Below, in pieces: positions 6,002 to 36,593 of a stretch of DNA of 36,593 nt. The stretch comes from a virus (Duplodnaviria; Caudoviricetes), in the IMG/VR virus record IMGVR_UViG_3300003965_000009, positions 1 to 36,593 of that record; one strand, 5' to 3'. Numbering within the stretch: the stretch's first letter is position 1; each line of letters begins with the position of its first letter. A model generated the notes under the pieces. That model saw nothing but the letters and a program-made list of their open reading frames with translations. It was not told where the DNA came from and did not search any database. The position numbers and the translations under genes were made by a program.

Positions 6002-6037
6002 AGATCTTCTCCTTTCGGTTCCCGATCTGCATAGCAC

Positions 6038-6052: not shown

Positions 6053-6076
6053 TCATAGGGGGAGCTATGGTCAGGC

Positions 6077-6289
6077 ATGCCCGATGGCGACCAGCCCCGC
6101 TCTGCGCTGCCGTGGCTCAGTCGGGCTACGGTGGCGGCTGCGCGGGCAGCACGCCGCCCGCCTGGCGCGCTTGCCTGTACGGGTGAAAGCGATAGCAAGG
6201 CTGTGCGCGATGTCGTCCTGGCACACCACCCAGCCTTGCCGCTCACGATGATCGCCGAGGCCGTCGCCTACGTCCTCGGCTCCGAATGA
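6077..6289 (+). CDS. Possible small hypothetical protein (70 aa)
   Basis: Fills the gap between minus-strand genes, GGAG upstream; no recognisable motif. Confidence 0.35.
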   Translation: MPDGDQPRSALPWLSRATVAAARAARRPPGALACTGESDSKAVRDVVLAHHPALPLTMIAEAVAYVLGSE

Positions 6290-6301
6290 CGACGCCCCGC
6301 G

Positions 6302-6856
6302 TCACGCCGCCTGTGATCGCGGCATCAGCCCGAAGTGCATCGCCAGTATGCCGAGTGCCGCGACCAGCATGCCACCCGCGATCGGCTGCGGGACTGGCTT
6401 GCCGCTCCAGCCTTGGCGGGCCGCCCATTCGCGGACCGACATCTCGAGGCCGACGACGAACCACGCGCAAGAGCCGGCCGGGCTGTCGTGGCCACCCAAG
6501 GCATCCAGCGCCGCGAGAACGCGGCGGCGCGCGTCGAGCTGGCGGTTGGACATCGTGCCTGCGGTCGATCCGGGCAGGTAGATCAACTGCGAGGTGGACA
6601 TGCTGTCGATCGCGGCGCTGCGGAACAGCGCCCGGAAGATGCAGCCCGCCTCGTGCATCTGCGGCGTGATGTTTCCGTTGGCCAGCATCATGCCGAGCGT
6701 GTCCACGGCGCGACGATGCGCCACGGGCGACCCTGTGTCCGGGTCCGCCTCGCGGATCGGCTCCGAGAACCCGCCATGCTGCAGCCGCCATTTCGAGGGC
6801 TTTGCCAGGTCGTCCTGCTTGGGCTTCGCCGCTTTTGACTTCCGCTTAACGGCCAT
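6302..6856 (-). CDS. DUF6456-like phage protein (late-regulator/antiterminator position)
   Basis: Start MAVKRKS with GGAGAG RBS; DTLGMMLANGNITPQMHEAG...CAWFVVGLEMSVREWA...LAMHFG; lies just upstream of cos; 184 aa. Confidence 0.7.
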   Translation of the reverse strand: MAVKRKSKAAKPKQDDLAKPSKWRLQHGGFSEPIREADPDTGSPVAHRRAVDTLGMMLANGNITPQMHEAGCIFRALFRSAAIDSMSTSQLIYLPGSTAGTMSNRQLDARRRVLAALDALGGHDSPAGSCAWFVVGLEMSVREWAARQGWSGKPVPQPIAGGMLVAALGILAMHFGLMPRSQAA

Positions 6857-20391: not shown

Positions 20392-20786
20392 CGGCCGCCA
20401 CCAGCATCACGGTCCGGGTACCGCTGGCGATCCGCCACCGGCCAGGGCGGAAGACCGTCGTGACACCGATGACCGATGGCGTGGCGCCGGTCACAACGCG
20501 GGCCGACCCCACGCTGGTCAAGGCACTGGCCAGGGGGTTCCGGTATCAGCGTCTGCTGGACGAGGGCCGATACGCGTCCATCAGCGAGATGGCAGAGGCC
20601 GAGCGAATCGAGCGGGGCTACCTGGGCAGCCTGCTGCGACTGACCCTCCTGGCGCCCGACCTCGTATCCGATGCGCTCGACGGTCGGCACATGCGCTCGG
20701 TCACCCTGGCCACCCTGCTGGAACCATTCCCCCTATGCTGGCGCAGCCAGGGCGAATTGTTCGGCAATGACGGGTCGGGAAAGTAA
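20388..20786 (+). CDS. Recombinase-associated small HTH-like protein (132 aa)
   Basis: ATGA-coupled; DPTLVKALARGFRYQRLLDEGRYASISEMA...RLTLLAPD. Confidence 0.8.
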   Translation: MTAATSITVRVPLAIRHRPGRKTVVTPMTDGVAPVTTRADPTLVKALARGFRYQRLLDEGRYASISEMAEAERIERGYLGSLLRLTLLAPDLVSDALDGRHMRSVTLATLLEPFPLCWRSQGELFGNDGSGK

Positions 20787-20841
20787 CGGCCCCGGCCACA
20801 TGGCCATTATGCGAAAGCAAAGTCCGTGGCATCTTCGGGGC

Positions 20842-23800
20842 GTGACAGGCCCCGTGATCGACAACCCGATTCTCAATAGCCCCTTCGCGGAACCGTCCCG
20901 CCATTGGGAGCTCGACGAGAACGGCATCCCCACTGGCACACCGGCCCCCGGCCGGCGGCGCAGCGAATTCATCGTCCCCGTCCCCCCGCCGAAGCACAAG
21001 GTAAAGGCTCAGGCCACCCTCGACCTGGAGGATGAGTACGGGAAGCGCCAGCCGAACGACTACATCAATGAAATCAGGGCCAAAGTCGCCCAATGGCGCT
21101 CCCTCGGCGAACAGGGCCTTCGTCCCGTCACGCCCGTCACCGCCCGCCTGCTGCGCCACTGGCGCGAACAGGGCCGAGCCCGCCCGCTCTTCTTCTGCCA
21201 GGTCGAGGCGGTCGAGACCGCCATCTGGCTGACCGAAGTCGCCCCCCGTGCCGAGACCGAGCGCCTGCGCACTCTGAATTCGGAGGCCAATCCGGACCTC
21301 CTGCGCATCGCCTTCAAGCTGGCGACCGGCGCCGGCAAGACCACAGTCATGGGGATGCTGATCGCCTGGCAGACCCTCAACGCCGCGCGCACGCGCAACT
21401 CGACCCGCTTCACCGACGCCTTCCTGATCGTGGCCCCCGGCCTGACGGTGAGGGACCGCCTGCGGGTGCTCCACCCGTCCGACCCGTCCAACATCTACGC
21501 CGCCCTCGACATCGTGCCGCGGGAGCTGCGCGACGACCTCCAGCGCGCCCGGATCGTCATCACCAACTTCCACGCCTTCAAGAAGCGCGAAACGCTCGAG
21601 GCACCGAAGCTGGCGAAGGAAATCCTGGCTGGCCGCACCGGCAAGGTCGAGCGCCCTGAAACCGATGGCCAGATGGCGCAACGCATCTGCAAGGACCTGC
21701 TCGGCCGCAAGCGCATCATCGTCATCAATGACGAAGCCCACCATTGCTATCGCCAGAAGGTCGGCGCGGCGGATGACGCCAGCGCGAAGCTCGACGCCGA
21801 AGGTAAGGCCGAGGCCAAGAAGAACAACGCCGCCGCCCGCCTCTGGATCAGCGGTATCGAGGCCCTGCAACGCGTGGTCGGCCAGCCCGTCCTGGTCTAC
21901 GACCTTTCGGCCACGCCCTTCTTCCTGCGCGGCTCAGGCTACCCCGAGGGCACGCTCTTCCCCTGGGTCGTCTCCGACTTTTCCCTGATCGACGCCATCG
22001 AATGCGGCATCGTGAAGGTGCCGCGCGTGCCGGTGCAGGACCTGCCAGGCGCCGACGAGCCGGTCTATCGCCACGTCTACCGCTACATCCAGGAACATTC
22101 GGATGTGAAGCTGCCCAAGGCTGGCCGCGCCAAGCAGGGCAAGCAGCTCACGCCCGACCAGCTTCCCTCCCAGCTCACCGGCGCGCTCCAGGCGCTCTAC
22201 GGTCACTACCGCCAGGTCTTCGAGAACTGGGCCAGCCGCGGCGGCAGCACACCGCCCGTCTTCATCGTGGTGTGCAACAACACCGCGACCTCCAAGCTCG
22301 TGCACGACTGGATCGCAGGGTACGAGCGCATCGAGACCGACGCCGAGGGCGCCGAGCGCCGCGTCATCGTGCCCGGCAACCTGCCGCTGCTCTCCAATGT
22401 CACCCAGGCCGGCATCGGCCAGAGCAGCATGGTGGAGCGCCCCGTCACCATCCTGATTGACAGTGAGGAACTCGAATCCGGCGAGGCCCTGTCGGACAAC
22501 TTCCGCAAACTGGCCGGCCCCGAGATCGACGCCTTCAAGCGCGAACTCCGCGCCCGCGGTCGCCATGTGGATGCCGAGACGGTCACCGACAGTGACCTGC
22601 TGCGGGAGGTGATGAACACCGTCGGCCAGCCCGGCCGGCTGGGTGAGCCGATCCGCTGCGTCGTCTCCGTCTCCATGCTGACCGAGGGATGGGACGCGCG
22701 CACCGTCACCCATGTGCTGGGCGTCCGCGCTTTCGGCACGCAATTGCTGTGCGAGCAGGTGATCGGTCGCGCGCTGCGCCGTGTCTCCTACGACCCGGTC
22801 GGCGTGGATGACGCCGGCAACGCCATGTTCGCACCGGAATATGCCGAGGTGCTGGGGATCCCCTTCAGTTTCGTGCCGGCCAATTCCAAGGCCGACTACA
22901 CCCCGCCGAAGAAGACCACCCAGGTCCATGCCGTGTTGCCGGAGCGCGCGGCGTTGGAAATCCGATTCCCCCGCGTCATCGGCTATCGCACCGTGCTGCC
23001 GCCCGGCCGCATCACCGCTGCCTTCACCAATGAAAGCCGCCTTGAGATCGATCCGACGGACGCGCCGCCCGAAGCCGTCAGCGCTGCCATCATCGGCGCC
23101 GAGCACACGCTGACGCTGAACGACCTGCGCCACCAGCGCGACACCACCATCGCCTTTCACCTGGCGGGCCACACGCTGCGCACCTGGTTTCGCGACAGCG
23201 AGGACCACCTGAAGCCGTGGCTGTTTCCACCGCTGCTCACCATCACGCGGCGCTGGATGGCGGAATGCCTGACCTGCATCGGCGGTACCTTCCCGGCCTA
23301 CCTGCTGTGGCGTGACATCGGCGACAAGGCCGCGGAGCGCATCTTCCGCGCATGCACGCCCGAAGTCGCTGGTCCCGGCACGCTTCGGCCGATCCTGGAC
23401 CCCTACAACGAGGCCGGCAGCAGCCGTCATGTCAGCTTCGCCACCACCAAGACGAATTTCTGGACCCCCGACGCGCAGAAATGCCAGGTCAACCTGATCG
23501 TCTGCGACGAGAATTGGGAGGCCGCGGCGGCCCAGGCGCTGGACGGCATGCAGGAGGTGCTGCGCTACGTGAAGAACGACCGGCTGGGCTTCGAAGTGCC
23601 CTATGTGGATGGCAGCACCGAGCGCCACTACCGGCCCGACTTCATCGTGGTGGTGGATGACGGTCGCGGCCCGGACGATCCGCTGCACCTCGTGCTGGAG
23701 GTGAAGGGCCGCCAGACCGCGCAGGACGACGTAAAGCACGACACCATGCGCAAACTCTGGGTGCCGGCGGTGAACGCGCTGGGGCGCTTCGGCCGCTGGG

Positions 23801-23886
23801 ATTTTTGCCGGGTGGATGGACCCTATGGCGTGGATGAGATCATCCGGCGGCGGCTGAACGCCGACGCTCTCTCACGCGCCGCCTGA
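20842..23886 (+). CDS. Type III-like restriction endonuclease Res (SF2 helicase + C-terminal PD-(D/E)XK; BPTD_3080-like)
   Basis: IDNPILNSPF start, FFCQVEA, KLATGAGKT, NDEAHH, SATP, MLTEGWD, QVIGRALRR, YRPDF...LEVKG; start probably GTG 20842 (or 20854). Confidence 0.9.
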   Translation: MTGPVIDNPILNSPFAEPSRHWELDENGIPTGTPAPGRRRSEFIVPVPPPKHKVKAQATLDLEDEYGKRQPNDYINEIRAKVAQWRSLGEQGLRPVTPVTARLLRHWREQGRARPLFFCQVEAVETAIWLTEVAPRAETERLRTLNSEANPDLLRIAFKLATGAGKTTVMGMLIAWQTLNAARTRNSTRFTDAFLIVAPGLTVRDRLRVLHPSDPSNIYAALDIVPRELRDDLQRARIVITNFHAFKKRETLEAPKLAKEILAGRTGKVERPETDGQMAQRICKDLLGRKRIIVINDEAHHCYRQKVGAADDASAKLDAEGKAEAKKNNAAARLWISGIEALQRVVGQPVLVYDLSATPFFLRGSGYPEGTLFPWVVSDFSLIDAIECGIVKVPRVPVQDLPGADEPVYRHVYRYIQEHSDVKLPKAGRAKQGKQLTPDQLPSQLTGALQALYGHYRQVFENWASRGGSTPPVFIVVCNNTATSKLVHDWIAGYERIETDAEGAERRVIVPGNLPLLSNVTQAGIGQSSMVERPVTILIDSEELESGEALSDNFRKLAGPEIDAFKRELRARGRHVDAETVTDSDLLREVMNTVGQPGRLGEPIRCVVSVSMLTEGWDARTVTHVLGVRAFGTQLLCEQVIGRALRRVSYDPVGVDDAGNAMFAPEYAEVLGIPFSFVPANSKADYTPPKKTTQVHAVLPERAALEIRFPRVIGYRTVLPPGRITAAFTNESRLEIDPTDAPPEAVSAAIIGAEHTLTLNDLRHQRDTTIAFHLAGHTLRTWFRDSEDHLKPWLFPPLLTITRRWMAECLTCIGGTFPAYLLWRDIGDKAAERIFRACTPEVAGPGTLRPILDPYNEAGSSRHVSFATTKTNFWTPDAQKCQVNLIVCDENWEAAAAQALDGMQEVLRYVKNDRLGFEVPYVDGSTERHYRPDFIVVVDDGRGPDDPLHLVLEVKGRQTAQDDVKHDTMRKLWVPAVNALGRFGRWDFCRVDGPYGVDEIIRRRLNADALSRAA

Positions 23887-23905
23887 ACCCGGAAGACAGC
23901 GCAGC

Positions 23906-26761
23906 ATGGCCCGCCCGAAGAAGCTCAAACCCGACGCACCCGCCACTGAGGTGGAGACGCTCGTCCACCCCGCCGATATCGCGCGCAAGAACATCCCAAC
24001 CGCGGAGACCGCGGCGCTGATGGCGGAGGAGGAAGCGCGGGCTGAACCCAAGCTCTATCCCCGCAACCCGGACCTGGACCCGCAACTGGTCTGGCGCGGG
24101 AAGGACGAGCAGGACAGCGCACCGCTGCGGGTCGAAACGGTCCCCATCTATATCCAGGAGAAACTTTATCCGGAGGCGCTGATCCGCGATCTGCAACGCG
24201 TGTCGGCGAAGGAAGCGGCACCGCAGGCCGATCTGTTCGGCAGCTTCGACCGCATCACGGATGAGGCGGCGCGGCTCGAGTTCTACCAGCACGCCGAGAA
24301 CTGGTCGAACCGGATGATCCTGGGCGACTCCCTGCTGGTGATGAACAGCCTGGCGGAGAAGGAAGGTCTTCGCGGCCAGGTGCAGATGATTTTTCTCGAT
24401 CCACCCTATGGAATCAAATTCAGCAGCAACTGGCAGCCGAGCACGCGCACGCGCGATGTGAAGGAGGGCAAGGCCGAAGGGCTGTCGCGCGAGCCAGAGC
24501 AGATCAAGGCCTTCCGGGACACCTGGAAGGATGGCATCCACAGCTATCTGGCATATCTCCGAGATCGACTGGCTGTAGCGCGGGAACTATTGGCCGAAAG
24601 CGGCAGTATCTTCGTTCAAATCGGCGACGAGAATGTCCATGTTGTGCGTAGCCTTCTCGACGAAGTTTTCGGGCCAGCCAACTTCATCGGACAGATCGCT
24701 TATCAAAAGACCACCGGTGCGACCTCTGATTTTCTCGGCGGCACGCTCGACTACCTGCTGTGGTTTGGAAAGAACCGTCAGCAAGCGAAATTTCGCGCCA
24801 TGTACAATCTGAAAACAGCCGGCGAAGAGGGTGCGACCAAGTATCGCAAGTTGATCCATCTCGATGGAGCGCGGAGACCTGCCGCAGAGGGAGAAGTCTC
24901 GGGTGCGACGGCGCTCCCAGATGGCTGGAAGTTGTACACCGACGACAACCTCACCAGCCAAAGCGCCGGCCGCGAAAAAGGAGAAGGCGCAGCGTCCTGG
25001 TTTGAAGTGAAACATGACGGCCGAAGTTTTCTTCCGACGATGCAATCCCGTTGGAAAACCAATGAAGCTGGGATGGGCCGTCTCCAGGCCGCTGGCAGGC
25101 TTGAGCCTGCGCGGAACATACTGCGCTACGTGAGGAAGCTGGATGATTTTGCCGCAGTCGAGATCAACGATCTCTGGCGGGATATCGGCGGCATCCAAAG
25201 CCGAAGCGATCCGAAGGTCTACGTGGTCCAGACGTCCACTACGGCAATTGAGCGCTGCATGCTCATGACCACCGATCCTGGTGACCTCGTCTACGATCCG
25301 ACCTGCGGTTCCGGCACCACCGCCTTCGTCGCCGAGCAATGGGGCCGCCGCTGGATCACCACCGACACCTCCCGCGTCGCCCTGGCGCTGGCACGCACGC
25401 GCCTCATGGCCGGGCGCTTCCCCGCCTACCTGCTGCGGGACAGTCGTGAGGGCGCAGCGAAGGAGGGCGAGATCACTGGCCGCCCACCCGAGGAAGGCCC
25501 CTTCCGCCACGACATCCGCCAGGGCCTGGTGCTGGAGCGCGTGCCGCACGTCACGCTGAAATCCATCGCCAACAACGCTGAGATCGATGTCATCCACGCC
25601 AATTGGGCGCCGAAGATCGAGGCCGCGCTCGCTACCCTCAACGCCGCTCTCGGGACAAAGCATGCGGAGTGGCAGGCTCCCCGCAACCTGCCCGAAGACG
25701 CGAAACCGGCGGTGCAGGAGGCGCATGCGGCATTCTGGGCCACTCGCCGCGCTCGGCAGGCGGAGATGGACGCCTCCATCGCCCGGAACGCCGATACCGA
25801 ATTCCTGCACGACCGGCCCTACACGAAGAAAAACGCCGTCCGCGTCACCGGCCCGTTCACGGTGGAGAGCCTCTCGCCCCACCGCGTCCTGCCCGCGGAT
25901 GAGGAAGACCAGGCGGTAATGGAGGCGCTGGCGCAGGAGGCGGGTGAGCCCGTGCCCGAACGCCGCCCGCTCCGCACCCGGCCCGACAGTGGCGATGACT
26001 TCGTGACCGCCGTGCTGGACAACCTGCAGAAGGCCGGCGTGCAGAACACGAAGAAGGACGAGCGCCTGACCTTCGCCACGCTGCGCCCCTGGCCTGGCGG
26101 CAGCCGCGTCTCGGCCGAGGGCGAGTACGAAGAAGCCGGCGTGAAGAAGCGTGCCGCCATCGTCATCGGTCCCGAATACGGCACCGTCGGCCCCGACCTG
26201 GTGCGCGAGGCCGCGCGCGAATGCCGTGATTGGGCGGACAGCATGGTCGTCTGCGGCTTCGCCTTCGACCCGCAGGTGGGCGACAGCACGATGAACCTCG
26301 GTCGGCTCGTGGTGCTGAAGGCGCGCATGAGCCAGGAGCTGCGCGCCGCCGAAGCCTACAAGGCGGGCGGCGGCAACCTGTTCGTCGTTTTCGGTGAGCC
26401 GGATATCGCGCTCGATCAGGCCGACGGTGAGTGCGTCGTGCGCCTGAAGGGCGTGGACATCTTCGACCCGACCACGGGTGAGGTCCGTTCCTCCGGCCGC
26501 GTCGAGGATGACGTGGCCTGCTGGTTCGTGGACACCGACTATGACGGCGACAGCTTCTTCGTCCGCCACGCCTATTTCCTGGGCGGCAAGGACCCCTTCG
26601 AGAAGCTCAAGACCGCGCTGAAGGCCGAAGTGGACGAGGACGCCTGGGCCAGCCTCTACCGCACCGAAAGCCGCCCCTTCGCGAGGCCGAGATCAGGCCG
26701 GATCGCGGTTAAGGTGATCAACCACTACGGCGATGAAGCGATGCGGGTGTTTCGGCTCTGA
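23906..26761 (+). CDS. Type III-like modification methyltransferase Mod (beta class, m6A)
   Basis: ILGDSL, FLDPPYG, central variable region, DPTCGSGTT, C-terminal IAVKVINHYGDE; 951 aa; 19 bp after res. Confidence 0.92.
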   Translation: MARPKKLKPDAPATEVETLVHPADIARKNIPTAETAALMAEEEARAEPKLYPRNPDLDPQLVWRGKDEQDSAPLRVETVPIYIQEKLYPEALIRDLQRVSAKEAAPQADLFGSFDRITDEAARLEFYQHAENWSNRMILGDSLLVMNSLAEKEGLRGQVQMIFLDPPYGIKFSSNWQPSTRTRDVKEGKAEGLSREPEQIKAFRDTWKDGIHSYLAYLRDRLAVARELLAESGSIFVQIGDENVHVVRSLLDEVFGPANFIGQIAYQKTTGATSDFLGGTLDYLLWFGKNRQQAKFRAMYNLKTAGEEGATKYRKLIHLDGARRPAAEGEVSGATALPDGWKLYTDDNLTSQSAGREKGEGAASWFEVKHDGRSFLPTMQSRWKTNEAGMGRLQAAGRLEPARNILRYVRKLDDFAAVEINDLWRDIGGIQSRSDPKVYVVQTSTTAIERCMLMTTDPGDLVYDPTCGSGTTAFVAEQWGRRWITTDTSRVALALARTRLMAGRFPAYLLRDSREGAAKEGEITGRPPEEGPFRHDIRQGLVLERVPHVTLKSIANNAEIDVIHANWAPKIEAALATLNAALGTKHAEWQAPRNLPEDAKPAVQEAHAAFWATRRARQAEMDASIARNADTEFLHDRPYTKKNAVRVTGPFTVESLSPHRVLPADEEDQAVMEALAQEAGEPVPERRPLRTRPDSGDDFVTAVLDNLQKAGVQNTKKDERLTFATLRPWPGGSRVSAEGEYEEAGVKKRAAIVIGPEYGTVGPDLVREAARECRDWADSMVVCGFAFDPQVGDSTMNLGRLVVLKARMSQELRAAEAYKAGGGNLFVVFGEPDIALDQADGECVVRLKGVDIFDPTTGEVRSSGRVEDDVACWFVDTDYDGDSFFVRHAYFLGGKDPFEKLKTALKAEVDEDAWASLYRTESRPFARPRSGRIAVKVINHYGDEAMRVFRL

Positions 26762-26878
26762 GGGGGTCGGCGGGGACACGGCGGAGTGCAGCGCTGCAGG
26801 GACGCCGCGCGGTTAGGCCGCCTCGGGTCGCTTTCAGATTGAGTGCAGAATCACCCCGCGACCCTATACGATGGGGGA

Positions 26879-29176
26879 ATGTCGAATCGATTCGCCACGA
26901 GGCAGCCGCCTGTACTGGCGCTGAACGCCATCCGGCTCATCTGCCCTGAGCAGCCCATCCCGGCGGCTTTGGTTCCATTCGATCGCGTACAACTCCATTC
27001 ATTCCTAGATCGCGCGACTCAGGATGTTTTTGCCACTCGATTCGCCGGAACGAATATGGCTGTTGTGCCAATTCTTCACGGCGCTGAGCTACCAGCCCCG
27101 CGCGAGAATTTGCTCGCCGCCGATAACATGCGCCTATTCTCGACACTTGCCCGAGAGGCCGTATTCCGACGTCTCCTGACCCTTCCCGGAAGTTACCGTG
27201 TCGTCAGTCGGCGTCCTCCAATTGTGGAGACAGCAAAGCAAGAGAACATTATCCCTACCTCTGTGGGGCTGCCGGATTGGCTCAAGAAGCGGGTAGTGCT
27301 CCGGTTCGAGACCCGGATCATCAGGCATCCCGGCGAAGCCCCCTATTTAGTATTAATTTGTGGAAATCGCCTTCGCACCGTCATCGATGTAGATTGCGGC
27401 CACTTGAATACTATCGGCGTTCCCCTGATCGGGAGTTATGTCTCAACCTGGATGAAAGACCCAGATCCAAAGGTGGCTGAACGGCTTCGACTAGCTGGGC
27501 GCGTCGTCGCCCACGATGGCGTCATGCTGACGCTCAGCGACCATGGCGACGGGCCTGCGGAGCTGCAGCTTCAATCAGCCTACCTCGAGCCAACGCGCGC
27601 GAATTTTAATGCCGTCGTTCAAGCCCTGGTACAGGGTCAGGCAGAGCGAGTACTCAGAGATCTCCAGGAGGTTGAAGGCGGACTTCGGGATGGCAAGGCC
27701 CACCTGAAGGCGCTGCAAAGCGCGCTGGAGTACTTCGGGCGCACTGATCTCGAAATTGCCGACGGGGTAACGGTACGATTCGGGAGTCTGCTTGACCAAG
27801 CGGCTGGATTGACGTTCCCGCCTGCCGAGGTTTTCCCAAAGCCTTCATTCTCGTTCGACCCGAGTGGGTCGCGCGACGATACCTGGACCCAGAGGCAGCT
27901 CGACTCGACGGGTCCATATGACCGAGCAACCTTTGAACGTAAGCGGCCGAGGATCGCGGTCATCTGCGAGGCACGGCGACGCGGCGACGTGGCAGAAACT
28001 GTCGCCCATTTCCTGGAAGGGCTCCCTACCATCAAGTCGCATAAGGGTCTCGTTCCACATGGGACGGGCTTGGTGGGCCGCTTCAGACTTCAGAAGCCGC
28101 AAGTCGAATTCTTCGAAGCCAGGGACGACAGCGGCGCCGCTTACGCTGACGCTGCGCGAAATGCGCTGTCGATGGCAGCGACCCGCGATCAGCCCTGGGA
28201 TTTGGCCTTCGTGCAGGTCCAAAGATCGTGGAAGGAGCGGCCATATAGCGACAGCCCTTATTGGTCAGCCAAGGCTGCCTTTTTGCGTCGAGACGTGCCC
28301 GTACAAGCCTTGTCGGCTGAAGTGATGTCTATGGGTGATTTTGAGTATGCATGTGCCCTGGCGAACGCCAGCCTCGCAGCCTACGCCAAGCTGGGTGGCA
28401 CGCCTTGGCTGCTAAAGGCTCGACCGTCGACGGACCACGAACTTGTCTTCGGCCTTGGGTCCCACACTCGCAAGGAGGGACGCCGTGGCGGAGGCGAGCG
28501 GGTCGTCGGAATCACGACCGTGTTCTCCAGTCAAGGGAACTACCTGCTGGATGCTCGTACGGCTGCGGTGCCATTCGAGCAGTACCCAACGACACTACGC
28601 GAAACTCTTGTGGCTGCAGTCGAGCGCGTTCGAAAGGAAGAGGCTTGGCGCGCAAGCGATACAGTGCGCCTGATTTTCCACGCATTCACGCAACTTCAAC
28701 AAGAAACAGCGGATGCCGTTGTAGCAGCGGTAGCGGGAATGGGGCTAACCGGAGTGAAATTTGCCTTTTTGCACGTAGCTGAAGACCATCCCTACACGCT
28801 GTTCGACCAGGCTTCGACGAGCGGTAAAGGGGCGTTCGCCCCCGACCGCGGTCAGGCAGTAGAGCTCACTGATCATGAGTGGCTTCTCACGCTCACGGGG
28901 CGCGATCAGGTCCGGGCTGCGTATCAAGGCATCCCCGATCCCGTTCTGCTCCGCCTGCACGAGAAATCGACGTTCCGCGACATGCGCACTCTAACCCGAC
29001 AGGTATCGGATTTCGCCTGTCACTCTTGGCGCACTTACGATCGCGCCCGTCTCCCTATAACGCTCCTTTATGCCGATGAGATTGCCAAGCAGCTCGCGGG
29101 GTTAGAGAGAACGCCGGGATGGGATCCCGACACAGCAGTGGTTGGCGCGGTAATGCGCAAGCCTTGGTTCTTGTGA
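26879..29176 (+). CDS. ago: Long-B prokaryotic Argonaute, RsAgo-like, catalytically inactive PIWI
   Basis: MID pocket Y-x3-K...Q...K (SPYWSAK...VPVQ...YAKLGGTPW); PIWI ELVFGLG, VGITTVF, TVRLIFHA, APDRG, HSWRT, PITLLYA, C-terminal WFL. The first and third tetrad Asp positions are replaced (GLG, FHA). Start ATG 26879 (765 aa) or GTG 26843 (777 aa). Confidence 0.93.
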   Translation: MSNRFATRQPPVLALNAIRLICPEQPIPAALVPFDRVQLHSFLDRATQDVFATRFAGTNMAVVPILHGAELPAPRENLLAADNMRLFSTLAREAVFRRLLTLPGSYRVVSRRPPIVETAKQENIIPTSVGLPDWLKKRVVLRFETRIIRHPGEAPYLVLICGNRLRTVIDVDCGHLNTIGVPLIGSYVSTWMKDPDPKVAERLRLAGRVVAHDGVMLTLSDHGDGPAELQLQSAYLEPTRANFNAVVQALVQGQAERVLRDLQEVEGGLRDGKAHLKALQSALEYFGRTDLEIADGVTVRFGSLLDQAAGLTFPPAEVFPKPSFSFDPSGSRDDTWTQRQLDSTGPYDRATFERKRPRIAVICEARRRGDVAETVAHFLEGLPTIKSHKGLVPHGTGLVGRFRLQKPQVEFFEARDDSGAAYADAARNALSMAATRDQPWDLAFVQVQRSWKERPYSDSPYWSAKAAFLRRDVPVQALSAEVMSMGDFEYACALANASLAAYAKLGGTPWLLKARPSTDHELVFGLGSHTRKEGRRGGGERVVGITTVFSSQGNYLLDARTAAVPFEQYPTTLRETLVAAVERVRKEEAWRASDTVRLIFHAFTQLQQETADAVVAAVAGMGLTGVKFAFLHVAEDHPYTLFDQASTSGKGAFAPDRGQAVELTDHEWLLTLTGRDQVRAAYQGIPDPVLLRLHEKSTFRDMRTLTRQVSDFACHSWRTYDRARLPITLLYADEIAKQLAGLERTPGWDPDTAVVGAVMRKPWFL

Positions 29177-30360
29177 CAGCCGGGCCTTTTATTCCGCAAA
29201 TCAGAGCGGGCTTAGAAGCGGCGGCGCAACCGACACACTCGACGGCTGCCCACGTACAGGCCTTTCGGGCGTGGTTACTGGGCGACCACGAACAGCTAAC
29301 CCGCCTGTCCGATGCCGCGGCTGTAAACCTCGAAGCGGGTGGCGTGCGGTCTGCTGGAGACGTAGCGACGCTTGGCTATGCGGACGCAGCTCTGCCACTG
29401 GTTACTCCGCTTCTTGATTCGTTGATCCGCGGGCTGACATGGTTGAGTGAGCGAGCGTGGTTCCGCCCGCATCAGCCGCATACGCTGGAAGCGGACGGGG
29501 TTGCTGCACTTGGCGTAGGGCTGGGCTCACAGCGACGAACCGTCAGCCCATCAGCGAGATGGCTGCAAGAGCTGGTGGTTCGGAGCGCGAGATCACCCGA
29601 CCTCTCCACTCTCGACCGCTCCCTCTTCATTGCTGCGGCACAAATATTGGACGCTCCCGGGCGTCAGGACGCCGCCGCTATGCTTCCGGAGGCTCGTTTG
29701 GCTCTCGCACGGCTAGACTTGGGGTCCATAGACGACGCCTGCCGCAGCGAGGCCTGGCAGCGCGCCTTGCGATTCTCAGGTGGTGAAGACGTGGTGCCGA
29801 GTGCAGCACTATTGCTCAAAACACTTGATATTTTAACTGATTACAATCTGCCTGCGCGCCTTGGCCATCTCAATCCACGCGACGTACTTCGAGTGTTGCA
29901 GGAAGTGCGGCGGTCTTTCAAGCGTTGGACATGGGAGGATGCTCCAAGAACGTCTAAGTCGGCTATGGCGCGTTGGGAGATCGAGAATGAATACCACGTC
30001 CAAAATTTGCTTTGGGGGATTTTGGCTCCCTTGTTCCCTGACTTGAATGACGAAGAAACTCTGCCGCCAGTTGGACAAAAGAATCCACGGGTTGATCTTT
30101 CCATCCCGAGCCTTGGCACCGTCATTGAGGTGAAGTTCATGCGACCCAACGCGACCTTCCAGGACGTCATCGAGCAGATCGCTGCGGATGCAAGCCTCTA
30201 TGCAACGGACCCGAAATGGACATCCCTCATCCCGTTTGTGTGGGACGATGCTAGACGCACTGAGCAACACCAGAAGCTTATCGCTGGCCTCGAACAGCTA
30301 CCGAGCGTCATCGGCGCCGTCGTGGTGTCGCGCCCCGGCAAAATGGATCGGTCAGCTTAG
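29173..30360 (+). CDS. Argonaute-associated PD-(D/E)XK nuclease (REase DpnII/MboI-like C-terminal domain)
   Basis: GTGA overlap with the ago stop; IENEYHVQNLL...DEE...RVDL...IEVKF...EQIAADASLY...FVWD; ~250-aa helical N-terminus; 395 aa. Confidence 0.85.
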   Translation: MTAGPFIPQIRAGLEAAAQPTHSTAAHVQAFRAWLLGDHEQLTRLSDAAAVNLEAGGVRSAGDVATLGYADAALPLVTPLLDSLIRGLTWLSERAWFRPHQPHTLEADGVAALGVGLGSQRRTVSPSARWLQELVVRSARSPDLSTLDRSLFIAAAQILDAPGRQDAAAMLPEARLALARLDLGSIDDACRSEAWQRALRFSGGEDVVPSAALLLKTLDILTDYNLPARLGHLNPRDVLRVLQEVRRSFKRWTWEDAPRTSKSAMARWEIENEYHVQNLLWGILAPLFPDLNDEETLPPVGQKNPRVDLSIPSLGTVIEVKFMRPNATFQDVIEQIAADASLYATDPKWTSLIPFVWDDARRTEQHQKLIAGLEQLPSVIGAVVVSRPGKMDRSA

Positions 30361-30673
30361 CCAAGAGGGGTCCGGCATCAGCGGACCGCGTTGCCTGCAA
30401 GCCAGCCTGATCGCGTCTCGGGTACCCTTTGCTTGGCGGTCAGCTTGTGGAAATCCCACAAGCCTCAACCCGGAAAAACGAGCCAATTTCAATGATATAA
30501 AGCTTGAGGGTTAAATCGCCATACCCCCAAGCTCCGGAGACTTCGGCGCCTCTGGAGAGAGATTTCCGGGCTGGCTGCGTTCTCCAACCCTCAAGCCAAC
30601 GCGGCAAAACCCCAGGAAACCTGCGGTTCACGGCGTCGTCGACGCGTGGAAAATTTGAGGTTGGAAAACCGAC

Positions 30674-30720
30674 TGGAGCGGGCGAAGGGATTCGAACCCT
30701 CGACCCCGACCTTGGCAAGG
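30674..30720 (-). other. att site: 3' fragment of tRNA-Gly(GCC)
   Basis: Reverse complement CCTTGCCAAGGTCGGGGTCGAGGGTTCGAATCCCTTCGCCCGCTCCA: anticodon arm, T arm, acceptor 3' strand and CCA; the D arm and 5' strand are absent. Confidence 0.9.
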
Positions 30721-30850
30721 CCTTTGGGGTGTTTTCGCCAACGCTTCTCTTTCTGCGCCATCAGACGCTAACGCCCTGCTACGGAAGTCTTTTCTGGCCC
30801 GTAGGCAAGCGTAGCCGTATCCCGGAACCGACCCGGCGTGCGCTCCCAGT

Positions 30851-30898
30851 TGCTTCCCCAGTGCTTCCCCGACCTCGGATGGCCGGGCCGGGGAAGCA
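30851..30898. repeat. Candidate integrase arm-type sites
   Basis: TGCTTCCCC at 30851 and 30862, inverted GGGGAAGCA at 30890, between att and the integrase. Confidence 0.65.
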
Positions 30899-30940
30899 GC
30901 GGCGCGAGCGCAGCCCTGTTGACGGGAGGCACTGAGCGCC

Positions 30941-32227
30941 ATGGCCAAGATCACAAAGCGCGTTGTAGACGGCCTCGACCCTAAGCCGAACGGCGATGTG
31001 TTCTCCTGGGACGGAGAACTGCGAGGCTTTGGCGTTCGGGTAAAGCCGTCCGGTGTGAAGACCTATCTCGTGCAGTATCGAAACGCGGAGGGTAGGACGC
31101 GTCGGCTGGTTCTCGGCCAGCATGGCGCATTGACGCCAGAGCAGGCGCGCAGTCTCGCTCTTCAGAAGCTGGCAGCAGTAGCACGGGGCGAAGACCCATC
31201 AGCGGCGAGGCACGCGGCGCGCGAGGGGATGACGGTCGCCGAAGTCTGCGATTGGTACCTGAAAGAGGCTCGTGCGGGTCGCCTACTCGGCCGAAGGCGG
31301 AGACCGATCAAGGCCTCCACGCTCGACTCTGATCAGAGCCGGATCGAGGCGCACATCAAGCCACTCATCGGCGCACGGGCTGTCCGCGGCCTTTCACTTC
31401 GAGACGTGGAGGGCATGCAGGCCGCGATCATCCAGGGAAAATCAGCGAAGGGGCGAAAGGGCCGTGGCGGAAGGACGAGCGGGGGGCCGGGCGTCGCAGG
31501 GAGAACGGTCGGCACGCTGAGAAGCATATTCGGCCACGCGCTGCGGTTCGAGATGATCGAGAAGAATCCCGCAGCGGGGGCACGACAGGTTGTGGGCGAG
31601 TACCGGAAGCGCCGTTTGAGCGAGGAGGAACTGCGGCTGCTCGGCCGGACGCTTCGCGTTTGCGCGGAGGACGGCGAGCACCCCACAGGGCTAGTCGCCA
31701 TTCGCTTGCTACTGCTCACCGGCTTCCGCCGGATGGAGGTGCTCGGACTTCAGCGCGCTTGGATCAATGATCGCCCGGGCTACGTGGCGTTCCCGGACAC
31801 GAAAGGCGGCGCGCAAGTGCGCGCGATCGGCAAGGCGGCGGTTGCGTGCATTACGGCCCAATCGACGGTAAGTCAGCATTCTCGCTATCTTTTTCCGGGC
31901 GACTGGGGGGAGGGGCACTTTGTCGGCCTTGTTCGCGTGCTCGACCGCGTCTGCGCGCGCGCGGGACTGACCGATGTCACTCCGCACACTCTGCGCCATA
32001 CCTTCGCGAGCGTGGCGGGTGATCTGAACTTCTCGGAATTGACGATCAAAGGCCTGCTCGGTCACGCGTCGCGCGGCGTCACGCAGGGCTATGTCCACCT
32101 GGACGCCGCCCTTGTCGTCGCGGCCGACGCCGTGTCCGTCAGAATCGCAAGGCTATTGGGGAGCACGGGCTCGCAGTCGCCGCAGCGGGTCACCAAAGCT
32201 CACGCCGCGGTCGCAACAGCCGAATGA
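30941..32227 (+). CDS. int: Tyrosine integrase with N-terminal arm-binding (DUF4102-type) domain
   Basis: WDGELRGFGVRVKPSGVKTY; catalytic TGFR, DTKG, HTLRH, LLGH, TQGY; GGGAGG RBS. Confidence 0.95.
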   Translation: MAKITKRVVDGLDPKPNGDVFSWDGELRGFGVRVKPSGVKTYLVQYRNAEGRTRRLVLGQHGALTPEQARSLALQKLAAVARGEDPSAARHAAREGMTVAEVCDWYLKEARAGRLLGRRRRPIKASTLDSDQSRIEAHIKPLIGARAVRGLSLRDVEGMQAAIIQGKSAKGRKGRGGRTSGGPGVAGRTVGTLRSIFGHALRFEMIEKNPAAGARQVVGEYRKRRLSEEELRLLGRTLRVCAEDGEHPTGLVAIRLLLLTGFRRMEVLGLQRAWINDRPGYVAFPDTKGGAQVRAIGKAAVACITAQSTVSQHSRYLFPGDWGEGHFVGLVRVLDRVCARAGLTDVTPHTLRHTFASVAGDLNFSELTIKGLLGHASRGVTQGYVHLDAALVVAADAVSVRIARLLGSTGSQSPQRVTKAHAAVATAE

Positions 32228-32493
32228 CGTTGTTTCCAATACGATCTGGCGCGTGAAGTCGTGACCCTGACGAGACGAGTTGCACGTTAGCCGCAGCTGT
32301 GGATCTGCTCGACGCGGGTGGGCGGTCAGCTCTCCTCGGCTGGAAACGCCGGAATGTGATTGCAAGTCGTTCATCTGCTCGGGCAGGTTCCTGGCGTCAG
32401 GTTAGGCAGAGGCCGGTCCTGCGCGCCGGCGGCGCGCTCCAAGGCCCGTGTGCGACCGGGATCGGGGTCGGCCGGCGTTGGAGGCTGGCCTAG

Positions 32494-33432
32494 GTGCCGC
32501 GACGGCCGCAGCGGCGGAAACGAGGAACGACGCTTCAGGGGGCAATCGACCTGCGCGGGATGACGTTGGCTGTCGTCGTGGCCCGGACCGGCAGCATCCG
32601 TCTTGCTGCGCGCGAAGCAGGCATAACGGCATCCGCAGTAAGCCGCAGTATTCGGGCGCTTGAGGACGGGCTCGGCGCCTCACTGTTTGAACGGCGGCCG
32701 TCGGGGATGAAGCTGACGGCAGCCGGCGTGGAGTTCCTCGTGGAAGCGATGCGCGTGCTTGGCGGCATTCGGACTGCGGTGGAGCGGGCGCGCAACGCAG
32801 GGTCCGCGGTGGCTGGTCAGCTGGTTATCGGCACCTACTTCTCCGCATCGGCAGGTCGTTTCCGCGAAACGCTGATGCGCTTCGTCAGACAGAACCCAAG
32901 GCTGCAGGTTTGGGTGCGCGAGGGGTGTCGGGATGAGCTTCTGACGGCGGTACGCCAAGGCGAGGTCGATCTGGCGCTGCTGCTCGGGCCGATGCACGAG
33001 CCGGGCTTGGATAGGCTCGCGCTCTGGCGGGAGGCTGTGATGGTCGCGCTGTCGGAGGGCCATCCGCTGGTCAGTCGAGACCTCGTGCTCTGGGCCGAAC
33101 TGGTGCAGGAGACGTTCATCATCACGCGCCGTGGGTCGGGGCCCGAAGCGCGCGAGAAGGTCGAGGCGCTTCTGCCGCCAGGTCACAAGGCGCGGTTCCT
33201 GCCGCACGACGTGGGCCGAGAGACCATGTTCAACTTGGTCGGCGCCGGACTCGGCATCGCGGTCCTGGCCGAGTCTGCCTCCGGCGCATCCTACCCGGCA
33301 GTAGTGTTCCGGCCCGTCGGCAATGAAAATGGCGCGACGATGGTGGAGGCGGCGGCGTACTGGGACCCGAAACGCGACAATCCGCCGCTGCGTCGGGTCC
33401 TGGCGTTGCTTCGCACGAATCAAGCTTCTTGA
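32494..33432 (+). CDS. LysR family transcriptional regulator
   Basis: GSIRLAARE...SAVSRSIRALEDGLGASLFER...LTAAG HTH plus substrate-binding domain; exact start uncertain. Confidence 0.92.
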   Translation: MPRRPQRRKRGTTLQGAIDLRGMTLAVVVARTGSIRLAAREAGITASAVSRSIRALEDGLGASLFERRPSGMKLTAAGVEFLVEAMRVLGGIRTAVERARNAGSAVAGQLVIGTYFSASAGRFRETLMRFVRQNPRLQVWVREGCRDELLTAVRQGEVDLALLLGPMHEPGLDRLALWREAVMVALSEGHPLVSRDLVLWAELVQETFIITRRGSGPEAREKVEALLPPGHKARFLPHDVGRETMFNLVGAGLGIAVLAESASGASYPAVVFRPVGNENGATMVEAAAYWDPKRDNPPLRRVLALLRTNQAS

Positions 33433-33692
33433 TCACGTGGAGGCACTGAAGGCTGAGGTAGCTGCGCGCGCGCTCGAGCCGCAGGGCGGCGTGCTGAGCG
33501 GAAACCCCGGTCGCTCGCCAGGAACCGCGCCAGCATCGGGGCCACCAGCTTCGTGGGCTCGACCTGTTGCCCCGTCTCGCGTGAGAGCGCCTCGGCGTAG
33601 GCGACCAGGTCGCGGTGCAGCTCCGCCGGCAACTCCACGCTGAGCTTCACCGGACGGTCGTCGAGGATCGGGCCGAGCTTCAGCTTCGGCAT
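33420..33692 (-). CDS. DUF2274 domain protein
   Basis: MPKLKLGPILDDRPVKLSVELPAELHRDLVAYA...MLARFLASDRGF; typical position after trbI. Confidence 0.9.
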   Translation of the reverse strand: MPKLKLGPILDDRPVKLSVELPAELHRDLVAYAEALSRETGQQVEPTKLVAPMLARFLASDRGFRSARRPAARARAQLPQPSVPPRDQEA

Positions 33693-33695
33693 GGA

Positions 33696-34856
33696 TCAGC
33701 CTCCATACGGCTCAAGCACGAGGTCGCGGTGGACGATGACGCGCACCAGAAAGCCGGGGCGCACGGTCAGCGTTGGCGGGACGGAAAGCTGCCGGCGGAC
33801 GATCTCCTCGCCGGCTCGGCCGACCGTGTCCTGGCCGCTGTCGCGGATGGCACGGGCGATGTCGCTCTCGTCGTCGCGGCCAAGTTCCAGGCCCAGGTTC
33901 AGAATCGTCGCGAGACCCGCGGCCAGGAAGAGCCGCCCCCAGTGGTAGTCGACGCCATCCTCGAGCCCGGCATAGCCGGCCTCGTCGGCGCCTGGCATGC
34001 GCTCCAGCACGATGGATCGGCCGTTGGGCAGGATGAGCCGGTTCCAGACGAGCAGGATGCGCCGCTGTCCGAAGCTGACGCGGCTGTCGTAGGCGCCGAT
34101 CAGGCGCGCGCCCTGCGGGATGAGCAGGTGCCGCCCCGTCGGGCTGTCGAAGACGTTCGCTGTGACCTGTGCGGTGATCTGCCCCGGCAGGTCGGAGCGG
34201 AGGCCGGTCAGCAACGCCGCGGGGATGACACTGCCGGCCTGGATGACGAAGGGGCTGACGGGCGCCTGGAGCCGGTCTGGCGAGGTCGTGCGGCGGTCGG
34301 CGGGGCCACCCAGGAAGGCGAGCCGCCGGTCGGTGGCGTCGGGACGCGCAGGCATGGCGCCGACGTCTGCTGCTGGTTGGGCGGCGGGCGTGACGCCGCG
34401 GGGTTCCCCCCGCGCCTCGACCTGCACGAAGAGCCGGCTGGTACGCGCCGCCTCTATCTCCTGCAACCGCCGCTGCTCGGCTGGGTCGGCAGTCGTGGGC
34501 GCTGCCGGCGGCACGACGGGTTGGCCACGCTCCTGCGCGCGCACGATTGGACGCCCGAGATCGCCGGGCAGCGGCGGCCCCAGCTGCGGAATGCCGGCAT
34601 AGTCGCGCGGCAGGGTCGCGAGGCCGTCGGCCTGCGGGTTCCGGTCCGTGCTGTAGAGCTCGCGCGGCCCCTCGCCGCCGCTCCGACCCTGGAGCGCCAC
34701 GATCAGCGCCGCGCCGATGCCGAGCCCGGCCGCGACGCCAAGCCCGATCAGCACCCGCCGCGAGAGCCGCACCACGCGCGGCGGGTCGGGGCGCAGGCGG
34801 AGCGCCGCGGCGATGTCGCGCTCGCTCGCGCCCCGTTCCGGCGCCGTCCCGCTCAC
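33696..34856 (-). CDS. trbI: Conjugal transfer protein TrbI/VirB10
   Basis: LRLRPDPPRVVRLSR, TM segment, PQLGPPLPGDLG, QAGSVIPAALLTGLRSDLPG, DYHWG, PTLTVRPG; current start GTG 34856 is created at the IS junction; 386 aa. Confidence 0.93.
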   Translation of the reverse strand: MSGTAPERGASERDIAAALRLRPDPPRVVRLSRRVLIGLGVAAGLGIGAALIVALQGRSGGEGPRELYSTDRNPQADGLATLPRDYAGIPQLGPPLPGDLGRPIVRAQERGQPVVPPAAPTTADPAEQRRLQEIEAARTSRLFVQVEARGEPRGVTPAAQPAADVGAMPARPDATDRRLAFLGGPADRRTTSPDRLQAPVSPFVIQAGSVIPAALLTGLRSDLPGQITAQVTANVFDSPTGRHLLIPQGARLIGAYDSRVSFGQRRILLVWNRLILPNGRSIVLERMPGADEAGYAGLEDGVDYHWGRLFLAAGLATILNLGLELGRDDESDIARAIRDSGQDTVGRAGEEIVRRQLSVPPTLTVRPGFLVRVIVHRDLVLEPYGG

Positions 34857-34879
34857 TGGTGCACCTTCGGGCTGTCGGG

Positions 34880-35075
34880 CGCGGAGCCGCGGAGCGGCGT
34901 AGTGTCCGGCAGCCCGAGCACCTGGCGTGACGGCCTGTTCCGCGCGCCGCTTGACGGCCACGATGAGACCAGCCGCACGTCAGGCGCCGGGAGATCTCGA
35001 CGGACCACAGGGTGATGCGCCAGAGCCGGCCAGCCAGAGCGCCAATCAGTGAGCGATCCGCGCGACCTCCCAGCC
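34880..35075 (+). ncRNA. Putative IS110 bridge RNA (boundaries approximate)
   Basis: CGATGAG (34961-34967) = revcomp of target CTCATCG; CACAGGGTG (35006-35014) = right-end 36332-36340; CAGTGAG (35047-35053) = revcomp of donor CTCACTG; flanking stems GGGAG/CTCCC, CGGA/TCCG, CTGG/CCAG. Confidence 0.75.
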
Positions 35076-35110
35076 CGGGTGAGCCTACCCCAAACCGAGG
35101 AGGTCAGCCC

Positions 35111-36316
35111 ATGCCTTTCCATGCCGGTCTCGACTGGGGTGGCACCGCCCACGCCGTCTGCGTCATCGACGCAACCGGTGCGGTGCTCGCCCGCATTGAG
35201 GTACAGCACGACGCCGCCGGCCTTGCCGACCTGCTTGCCCGCCTCAAGCGCATCGCCGCCCCAGCCAACTTGCCGGTCGCCATCGAGCGTCCCTCCGGCC
35301 TGATCGTCGATGCGTTGATCGAGGCTGGCCATCCGGTCGTCCCGATCCACCCCAACATCGTCAAGGCCTGCCGCCCGCGCTATCGCGCCGCCGGTGGCAA
35401 GTCCGATCCGGCCGACGCCTTCATGCTCGCCGACATCCTGCGCACCGACGGCCACCGCTTCCGTCCCCTCATGCCCGCCGCCGACGACATCAAGGCACTG
35501 CGTGCCCTGGTGCGCGGCCGCGACGACCTGGTCGGCCAGCGCGTCACACTCGCCAACACGCTCCGCTCCAACCTCGAGAGCTTCTGGCCCGGCGCAGCCG
35601 CCATCTTCGCTGACATCGACAGCCCGATCGCGCTCGCCTTCCTCCGCCGCTACCCAACACCGGACAGCGCCGCACGCCTCGGCCCCAAGCGCCTCGCCGG
35701 CTTCCTTGCCAGCCACGCCTATTGCGGCCGACGCAGCCCGGCCGAACTTCTTGCCCGCCTGCGCGCCGCGCCCACCGGCCGCGCCGGCGAGGCCGAAGCC
35801 GAGGCCCGCGGCGAACTGGTCCGGGCGTTGGCGGCCACCCTCGAAACCCTCGTCGCCGAGATCGTCCGCCTCTCCAGCCGCATCGCGCACGACGTCGCCG
35901 CCCTGCCCGACGGGCAGATCGTCATGTCCTTCCCGCGATCGGGCCGCATCTGTGCCGCGGCGATCCTCGCCGAGCTCGGCGATGTCCGCGAACGCTTCCC
36001 CACCGCCGATCAGCTCGCCGCCGAAGCCGGCGTCGCTCCCGTCACCAACGCCTCCGGCAAGTCCCGCGGCGTCACCGTCCGATGGGCCTGCAACCACCGC
36101 CTCCGGCAGGCCATCACCACCTTCGCCGACAACTCCCGTCATGCCTCCGCCTGGGCCGCCAGCCTCTACAACCAGGCCCGCCAGCGCGGATGCAAGCACC
36201 AGCACGCCACCCGAATCCTCGCCCGCGCATGGTGCCGCGTCCTGTGGAAGGCCTGGCAGGATCGCACCGCCTACGACCCCGCCCGCCACGCCGCCACGGC
36301 GAAACTCGCCGCCTGA
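35111..36316 (+). CDS. IS110-family recombinase (DEDD RuvC-like + Transposase_20)
   Basis: AGLDWG, VAIE, KSDPADA acidic tetrad; AGVAPVTNASGKS with conserved Ser; GAGGAGGT RBS; 401 aa. Confidence 0.95.
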   Translation: MPFHAGLDWGGTAHAVCVIDATGAVLARIEVQHDAAGLADLLARLKRIAAPANLPVAIERPSGLIVDALIEAGHPVVPIHPNIVKACRPRYRAAGGKSDPADAFMLADILRTDGHRFRPLMPAADDIKALRALVRGRDDLVGQRVTLANTLRSNLESFWPGAAAIFADIDSPIALAFLRRYPTPDSAARLGPKRLAGFLASHAYCGRRSPAELLARLRAAPTGRAGEAEAEARGELVRALAATLETLVAEIVRLSSRIAHDVAALPDGQIVMSFPRSGRICAAAILAELGDVRERFPTADQLAAEAGVAPVTNASGKSRGVTVRWACNHRLRQAITTFADNSRHASAWAASLYNQARQRGCKHQHATRILARAWCRVLWKAWQDRTAYDPARHAATAKLAA

Positions 36317-36342
36317 ACATTCAAAGCTGGACACAGGGTGTC

Positions 36343-36593
36343 TCATCGCGCCCGGCCGTCGGTGCGCACGATGCGCACGCGCTGCTGCCGGTCGCCGAGG
36401 CGCAGCTCGGCCGCCGCAAAGAGCCGGTCGACGATCACAAAATTCTGGCGGACGCGGTAGTTGACGAGCTGGCCCTCGCCCTCCGGCCCGATGACAAAGA
36501 GCGGCGGCATCTCGCCCTGGCCGATACCGCGCGGGAACTCGATGAAGACTTGGCGGCCGTCGTCGAAGGCGCGCAGCGGTCGCCAGGCCGGGC
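36343..36593 (-). CDS. trbG: Conjugal transfer protein TrbG/VirB9, 3' end
   Basis: Read manually: PAWRPLRAFDDGRQVFIEFPRGIGQGEMPPLFVIG...LVNYRV...VDRLFAAAELRLG...RTDGRAR-stop. Confidence 0.92.
   Translation of the reverse strand, partial: PAWRPLRAFDDGRQVFIEFPRGIGQGEMPPLFVIGPEGEGQLVNYRVRQNFVIVDRLFAAAELRLGDRQQRVRIVRTDGRAR

Follow-up and report, generated by a model that had tools for sequence, protein, structure and literature searches.

In Escherichia coli, a long-B prokaryotic Argonaute (pAgo) and a nuclease make up the BPAN system: EcAgo loads 5'-phosphorylated RNAs and binds matching single-stranded DNA (ssDNA) with no cutting, and target-bound EcAgo turns on EcbAgaN, which leads to non-specific DNA degradation and to the death of cells carrying the trigger plasmid (Song 2023, PMC10620215). 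EcbAgaN cuts without sequence specificity and accepts methylated DNA as a substrate (PMC10620215); in vivo, EcBPAN breaks down the host genome, and in vitro it does the same to bystander DNA (PMC10620215, PMC13535254). In the absence of Ago, the full-length nuclease does no harm; Ago activates and does not neutralise it, and mutants of the D-EVK site are dead (PMC10620215, PMC13535254). The structure solved by cryo-electron microscopy (23WQ) revealed an 8:8 complex, in which a loop of the nuclease N-domain inserts between MID and PIWI only once guide and target are bound; the C-domain of EcbAgaN alone is toxic and is inhibited by the N-domain, and EcBPAN gave protection against one phage out of six (Liu 2026, PMC13535254). 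Here we analyze an Argonaute gene and the effector gene that follows it in the IMG/VR record IMGVR_UViG_3300003965_000009, a linear viral sequence 36,593 bases long with an estimated completeness of 35%, the whole of which is referred to as the window. Judging by sequence, this pair is a BPAN, i.e., a long-B pAgo with a bAgaN effector, and thus an already published system.

The same architecture is known from the PTH_0722 family, RecB2 og_15 and the Af1317-type effectors, in which an alpha-helical N-domain joined to a PD-(D/E)XK nuclease is encoded downstream of a full-length inactive Ago (PMC2743648, PMC6299218, PMC10954474). The PADLOC combination of pAgo_II and Aga_Helical-REase represents the same class, and the window pair differs from it in nothing. 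RsAgo of Rhodobacter sphaeroides (PDB 5AWH, 6D8P), which uses an RNA guide and a DNA target, is also a long-B protein with an inactive PIWI, like the window Ago, and is more distant from it than EcAgo. A ternary complex of RsAgo is named in PMC10954474. SPARDA and SPARHA, composed of a short pAgo and an APAZ-nuclease, likewise provide a target-triggered collateral DNase and abortive infection (PMC13535254); there, however, the short Ago is stably bound in a heterodimer whose other half, an APAZ fusion, is encoded by the upstream gene, whereas the window encodes a full-length Ago followed by an effector that is a separate protein and lacks APAZ. An assignment to the short pAgos of the SPARDA/SPARTA type was ruled out: the Ago has 765 aa, the upstream gene encodes a methyltransferase, and the effector gave no match to the APAZ models.

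The best PDB match of the window Ago was EcAgo (23WQ; E 5.7e-107, residues 13–765 of 765), with RsAgo second (E 2e-66). The protein has the full-length long-B architecture (N, PAZ*, MID, PIWI), its close relatives are likewise 765 aa long, and PADLOC assigned it over the full length to pAgo_II (E 1.8e-223); on the NCBIfam RsAgo model it scored 274 bits against a cut-off of 700 bits. The residues Y461, K465, Q476 and K504 of the MID 5'-phosphate pocket, together with the C-terminal L765, correspond to Y426, K430, Q441, K469 and L731 of EcAgo and are nearly invariant among the aligned Agos (K465 in 44/45, each of the other four in 45/45). The positions of the catalytic tetrad are G527, E567, F603 and D733 (G492, E532, Q568 and D700 in EcAgo), so that two of four are lost; no aspartate occurs at G527 or at H601-A602-F603, which rules out an active long-A pAgo with an intact DEDX tetrad. 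The residue correspondences for both proteins were counted by hand along printed alignments in the numbering of PMC13535254. The first-pass annotation, made from the letters alone, had read an intact phosphate pocket and GLG and FHA (525–527 and 600–602) in place of active motifs, and the alignment to EcAgo bore out both; its term "RsAgo-type" holds for a slicer-dead long-B protein and fails for the nearest kin, which is EcAgo (362 vs. 227 bits). In comparison with the locus L002, a near copy of the pair (92% and 95% identical), 181 synonymous and 58 non-synonymous codon changes were counted in the Ago gene, and 46 and 18, respectively, in the effector gene; such a prevalence of synonymous changes is expected for working genes.

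The effector gene begins with a GTG at 29173, which overlaps the Ago stop by four bases (GTGA), as the earlier reading had it, and this overlap points to putative translational coupling of the two genes. Of the paired relatives, 52/78 likewise have an in-frame start at position -4 (CTG and TTG allowed), which is ATG in many of them; a start at ATG-29119 (413 aa) was rejected as a probable over-extension because the -4 start is common among these relatives. The best PDB match of the effector was the EcbAgaN chain of the same structure (23wq_1; E 6.5e-43, residues 209–391), i.e., the profile search suggested at the outset for both proteins returned the two chains of 23WQ. The profile of the effector family matched EcbAgaN at residues 53–387 (E 3e-93), and PADLOC assigned residues 8–392 to Aga_Helical-REase (E 1.5e-120). 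Pfam PF18742 (DpnII-MboI) was found at residues 244–388 (E 4.2e-50). The motifs RVD (306–308) and IEVK (318–321) contain D308, E319, V320 and K321, which align with D298, E309, V310 and K311 of EcbAgaN; together with E273 they yield the complete E...D...EVK site that had been noted, its residues E273, D308, E319 and K321 being invariant in 56/56 homologues. A Foldseek search of the whole effector or of its N-domain against solved structures returned none at E 0.001; 23WQ did not appear, probably because the library ends in April 2026.

The N-terminal part of the effector was modeled as 11 helices over residues 1–225 with a mean pLDDT of 93.5 and a pTM of 0.91. The helical nature supposed initially is thus retained, with a length of about 225 aa instead of about 250; that this region defied assignment no longer applies, since the PADLOC model covers it. 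A profile built from 56 N-domains alone matched EcbAgaN at residues 48–213 (E 3.3e-18); it included two E. coli-like rows. When 54 rows without these were compared, profile to profile, with four E. coli-like N-domains, the match was 81% (E 1.1e-5, 134 columns), and the reversed decoy in the same test gave 0.3%. This broad match argues that the N-domains of the window effector and EcbAgaN are the same, strongly diverged domain; by sequence comparison, the former is a remote homologue of the latter, known since 2009. Residues 94–103 align with the protruding loop Q81–R90 of EcbAgaN with no gap and with equal length and register across several profile alignments, and in the model they form a coil between helices 80–92 and 109–120.

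Searches of other kinds did not place the N-domain. Pfam named no family in 56/56 members (best E 0.027), and the ESM Atlas returned nothing at a threshold of at least 0.9 for it or for the small basic domain described below. According to PMC13535254, the N-domain is without a structural homologue. VIA-align of the N-domain model (m533b30c5d198) ranked alpha/alpha-toroid proteins at the top (GH105 4xuv, Z 10.7, root-mean-square deviation 4.3, 216 aligned), followed by GH88, terpene cyclases and thioester domains; this likeness is a lead only, because Z values below about 13 can reflect a common helical arrangement. The distances of Ago correlated with those of the N-domain (rho 0.66) and of the C-domain (rho 0.55) in 43 loci, and the former value is not counted as evidence of binding, since neighboring genes share ancestry.

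The two genes are consistently found together. Among 82 loci with effector relatives (the best 80 of 160 from the genome scan and 2 from the viral scan), Ago lies directly upstream of the effector in 78; one of the other four has only 229 bases before the effector, and in three the match is confined to the nuclease domain. Conversely, a scan with an Ago profile, built from 14 sequences of a different part of the family, yielded 87 loci, of which 7 are viral and the rest are the best 80 of 523 from metagenomes; in 80 of the 87 a helical-domain gene follows Ago. The restriction-modification genes that precede the pair in the window were rejected as a third partner: a close Mod adjoins Ago in 1/82 related loci, and Res in none.

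The coordinates of the features are summarized in Table 1.

Table 1. Features of the window and of related loci (positions outside the window are given with the locus name)
Feature	Position	Strand	Evidence and remarks
Long-B prokaryotic Argonaute, 765 aa	26879..29176	+	Matches to EcAgo (23wq), RsAgo and PADLOC; tetrad G-E-F-D, inactive type
bAgaN effector, 395 aa	29173..30360	+	Match to EcbAgaN (23wq_1), family profile, PADLOC; GTG start
Helical N-domain, residues 1-225	29173..29847	+	Model, profiles; predicted Ago-docking, autoinhibitory module
Loop 94-103	29452..29481	+	Aligned to EcbAgaN protruding loop Q81-R90; putative docking role, after PMC13535254
PD-(D/E)XK nuclease domain	29875..30345	+	Residues ~235-391; E273, D308, E319, K321
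Type III restriction-modification-like pair	20671..26761 (Res 20671-23886, Mod 23906-26761)	+	NCBIfam NF046055, PADLOC MTase_III; context only
tRNA-Gly(GCC) gene, 3' part	30674..30720	-	Sequence; likely attachment site, context
Basic-domain loci (1)	L085, L086, L100, L101, L103-L106, L108, L113, L118, L119, L123		
Basic-domain loci (2)	L127, L130, L133-L136, L142-L144, L151, L163, L167		
Basic-domain example	L101: partner 5205-6203, repeats ~6209-6350, HTH_17 gene from 6400		
CHAT, CAP12-type TIR and SEFIR fusions after long-B Ago	L095:6310-7701, L102:6244-7590, L154:6283-7587, L112:6292-7626, L165:3223-4230		
Protein of 285-296 aa after long-B Ago	L089:6274-7161, L090/L091:5695-6549		Viral records

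The window pair shares with EcBPAN the gene order, the two-gene operon, the inactive long-B Ago with its Y-K-Q-K pocket and two tetrad losses, the helical N-domain joined to a D-EVK nuclease, a docking loop of equal length, and the C-domain dimer surface. At dimer site 2 of EcbAgaN, 8 of 10 residues are identical in the window effector (K250, R251, T253, E255, W268, H275, N278, D293), and E269 and W281 are replaced conservatively. By analogy with the E. coli system, both genes very probably act as a BPAN does: RNA-guided sensing would activate the nuclease, with non-specific DNA degradation and death of the infected cell. Ago, whose G527 and F603 show that it is unable to cut, would bind 5'-phosphorylated guides in its pocket; the RNA nature of the guide and the ssDNA target are presumed from EcAgo. 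The nuclease may rest as a dimer inhibited by the N-domain, as the conserved C-domain contacts would allow, until target-bound Ago binds loop 94–103 and drives a higher oligomer. Abortive infection might then shield the lysogen population from plasmids or rival phages, a step suggested by the E. coli data and by the location of the pair in a swappable cargo slot where a prophage-like element ends. The initial proposal that the N-domain is the Ago-sensing and autoinhibitory module of an RNA-programmed non-specific DNase thus finds support in homology to the E. coli system; the novelty it implied does not, the mechanism of the E. coli homologue, along with the mutant and domain tests suggested at the outset, being already described in PMC10620215 and PMC13535254.

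Several observations weigh against a simple transfer of the E. coli mechanism. Four of the seven Ago-side nuclease contacts are changed relative to EcBPAN (Y347, F352 and D594 are kept), none of the three EcAgo–EcAgo contacts is retained (D400>T435, R552>E587, H726>R760), and only 3/10 octamer contacts are identical in the window pair; the first-base contacts of EcAgo are substituted as well (N424>S459, N460>A495, each in 11/45). The N-domain shows about 15% identity to the E. coli type (L081), vs. 48% in the nuclease domain. The N-domain profile devoid of the two E. coli-like rows gave 26 bits for L069 and 9 bits for L081, with the best reversed decoy at 7 bits, and a profile restricted to the narrow subclade of the window misses the E. 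coli-type N-domain (0.11%). Finally, relatives with a deleted or interrupted nuclease gene occur. The window pair, known here from sequence, also differs from EcBPAN in belonging to an alphaproteobacterial-type clade and in lying on a prophage-like record. The changed interface and first-base residues point to pairing that is specific to the clade, and possibly to a different guide bias or oligomer; since many docking and oligomer contacts are changed, partner specificity, and perhaps the 8:8 geometry too, may be particular to this clade.

The same substitutions could be taken as a sign of local, non-suicidal action, in which Ago would bring the nuclease to the invader, cutting would occur near the target and the cell would survive. 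The loss of most Ago–Ago and octamer contacts of the E. coli 8:8 complex would agree with this, and a surviving host would benefit the prophage. We nevertheless consider such action improbable, given that the E. coli homologue destroys the host genome in vivo as well as bystander DNA in vitro, that the C-domain dimer surface and the active site are conserved, and that the interface residues vary family-wide, which fits partner specificity. An addiction or maintenance module for the prophage, where the helical domain and Ago would restrain a toxin with no sensing of invaders, could be imagined from the toxic C-domain of the homologue and from the overlapping, low-GC cargo genes on a mobile element; it is, however, very improbable, because the E. 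coli Ago activates its nuclease, harmless without it, and because in related elements either the cassette is replaced as a whole or the nuclease alone is lost. Least credible of all is an independent DpnII-like restriction enzyme belonging with the neighboring methyltransferase, with Ago as a bystander, as the Pfam name REase_DpnII-MboI and the methyltransferase gene just upstream of Ago might suggest: the effector homologues follow Ago almost throughout and rarely have a close Mod, the window Mod has its own Res partner, and EcbAgaN is neither sequence-specific nor stopped by methylation.

The BPAN cassette sits where a prophage-like element ends and is low-GC cargo that can be exchanged. Both cassette genes have a GC content of 59%, vs. 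64–67% for Res, Mod and the integrases. Upstream of Res/Mod lies a prophage-like arm (window 1–20786), which ends in a serine integrase and also carries genes for a small terminase, two ParB-methyltransferases, a primase, a helicase and Sak4. In one contig of the public run X1, the end of Mod (26763) is joined to 30486 via 2,890 other letters, and another contig of this run is devoid of 29322–30422, i.e., nearly the whole nuclease gene. These variants indicate that the slot 26764–30485 accepts other cargo and that the nuclease can be lost. The nearest named relatives are alphaproteobacterial, and the effector was found in 2/301 genomes of one alphaproteobacterial family. In the viral record L082, a BPAN 70–77% identical to that of the window lies near the same kind of serine integrase, in the opposite orientation. 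The nuclease gene of a further close BPAN (L173/L174, G151:C3:135665-142645) is interrupted by about 2.7 kb.

To the right of the cassette (30674–36593), the tRNA-Gly 3' fragment is followed by a tyrosine integrase, a LysR regulator, a TrbI-like gene and an IS110 transposase; this region probably belongs to another element, of conjugative type, that was joined onto the virus record. ARAGORN detected no whole tRNA in the window, and the missing 5' half of tRNA-Gly is present in contigs extending beyond 30720. No sigma-70 promoter match was obtained, terminators were not in excess, and none of the repeat families was tied to the cassette. Contigs about 94–95% similar to the Ago gene were obtained from an RNA-library run, and such contigs cannot prove transcription. 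The annotated phage collection yielded no Ago match.

The helical domain is not confined to nucleases. Its profile retrieved 487 cluster representatives; the best 150, sorted by their tails, comprised 79 with a nuclease, 37 with another tail of at least 60 aa and 34 that end early. Scanning 29 of the 37 other tails identified SEFIR/TIR in four, CHAT in two, and a CAP12-type TIR, PNP and a weak helix-turn-helix (HTH) in one each; a further SEFIR/TIR fusion, P0253, also carries an Ago C-terminus. The 80 helical-domain loci retrieved with the Ago profile encode a nuclease (39), a small basic domain (25), CHAT (2), SEFIR (2) or a CAP12-type TIR (1), and 11 are cut or frameshifted; four of the other seven stop at a contig edge, and three encode a different protein after Ago. 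The helical domain, including a SEFIR swap, was described in PMC2743648, and fusions with transmembrane, TIR, HEPN and PD-(D/E)XK domains are listed in PMC10954474; effector swapping on this domain was therefore rejected as a new finding. The SEFIR, TIR and other fusions are at odds with the statement in PMC13535254 that the helical domain is absent from other long-B effectors.

The CHAT protease (two loci), the CAP12-type TIR (one) and SEFIR (two, one of them cut by the contig end) stand joined to the helical domain directly after a long-B Ago. A CHAT fusion beside Ago was not found in the literature searched, as far as its passages were available, whereas SEFIR and TIR swaps are published; the CAP12-type TIR, small basic-domain and PNP fusions are not listed in the passages of PMC2743648, PMC6299218 and PMC10954474. 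Fusions known from proteins only (P0286, P0310, P0338, P0244, P0210, P0220, P0213, P0305) have tails that include a PNP nucleosidase, hydrophobic helices (recognized by eye), a weak HTH and, in one clade, other small basic tails; the set further includes proteins of the nuclease type that carry an additional EAD1-trypsin or EAD7 domain. The 285–296 aa proteins of L089 and L090/L091 gave no match to the N-domain profile and no Pfam family.

In 25 of the 87 Ago loci, encoding 23 distinct proteins, the helical domain is joined not to a nuclease but to a conserved basic domain of 70–80 aa (isoelectric point ~10, no Pfam family). An HTH_17 gene lies 161–201 nt downstream in 21/25 of these loci and in 0/39 nuclease-type loci, and it is followed by primase-like or integrase genes; a divergent MerR-type gene is located upstream in 7 of the 25. 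Short repeats lie behind the partner gene in these loci; their motif ACGG(G/T)C(A/G), chosen by eye, occurs in 1–4 copies in the gap of 25/25 loci and once in 4/30 controls. The Agos of this group (24 tested; L167 was too short and was dropped) have an intact pocket and form one clade, sister to the nuclease-type Agos, so the loci are not independent cases. Two of them lie within IMG/VR proviruses.

The HTH_17 gene is presumably excisionase-like, and we take both it and the MerR-type gene to have roles in mobile elements. The charge and gene position of the basic domain imply that it may bind DNA and act as a regulator, and the arrangement as a whole suggests Argonaute-controlled induction of the mobile element. 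We tentatively propose, as a rather unlikely reading that still merits attention, that the helical domain is a portable Ago-docking switch which, in this one clade outside the window, was converted from a killing function to the control of genes; RNA-guided recognition of DNA would then signal to a prophage or satellite that it should excise and replicate. L176 speaks against such a switch: there the basic domain stands before an excisionase, the helical domain is partial, and the surrounding 1.5 kb gave no Ago hit. The combination of basic domain, repeats and excisionase was not found in the literature searched, including the available part of the supplement of PMC10954474, most subscription papers being outside the search.

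Overall, the window pair adds little in kind, since publications already cover the system together with its structure and the function of the N-domain. Its interface and first-base residues differ from those of E. coli, and it may therefore serve as a distant second test case of how general the 8:8 bowl and the 5'-A bias are, and of whether Ago and effector can be exchanged from one clade to another; in addition, BPAN is now placed in a prophage cargo slot. The basic-domain arrangement is a more interesting lead than the window pair. If the proposed switch is real, it would be the first case of a prokaryotic Argonaute serving as the sensor of a transcription switch; long-B Argonautes would then be more than suicide sensors, and the helical domain would represent a modular adaptor for programmable outputs.

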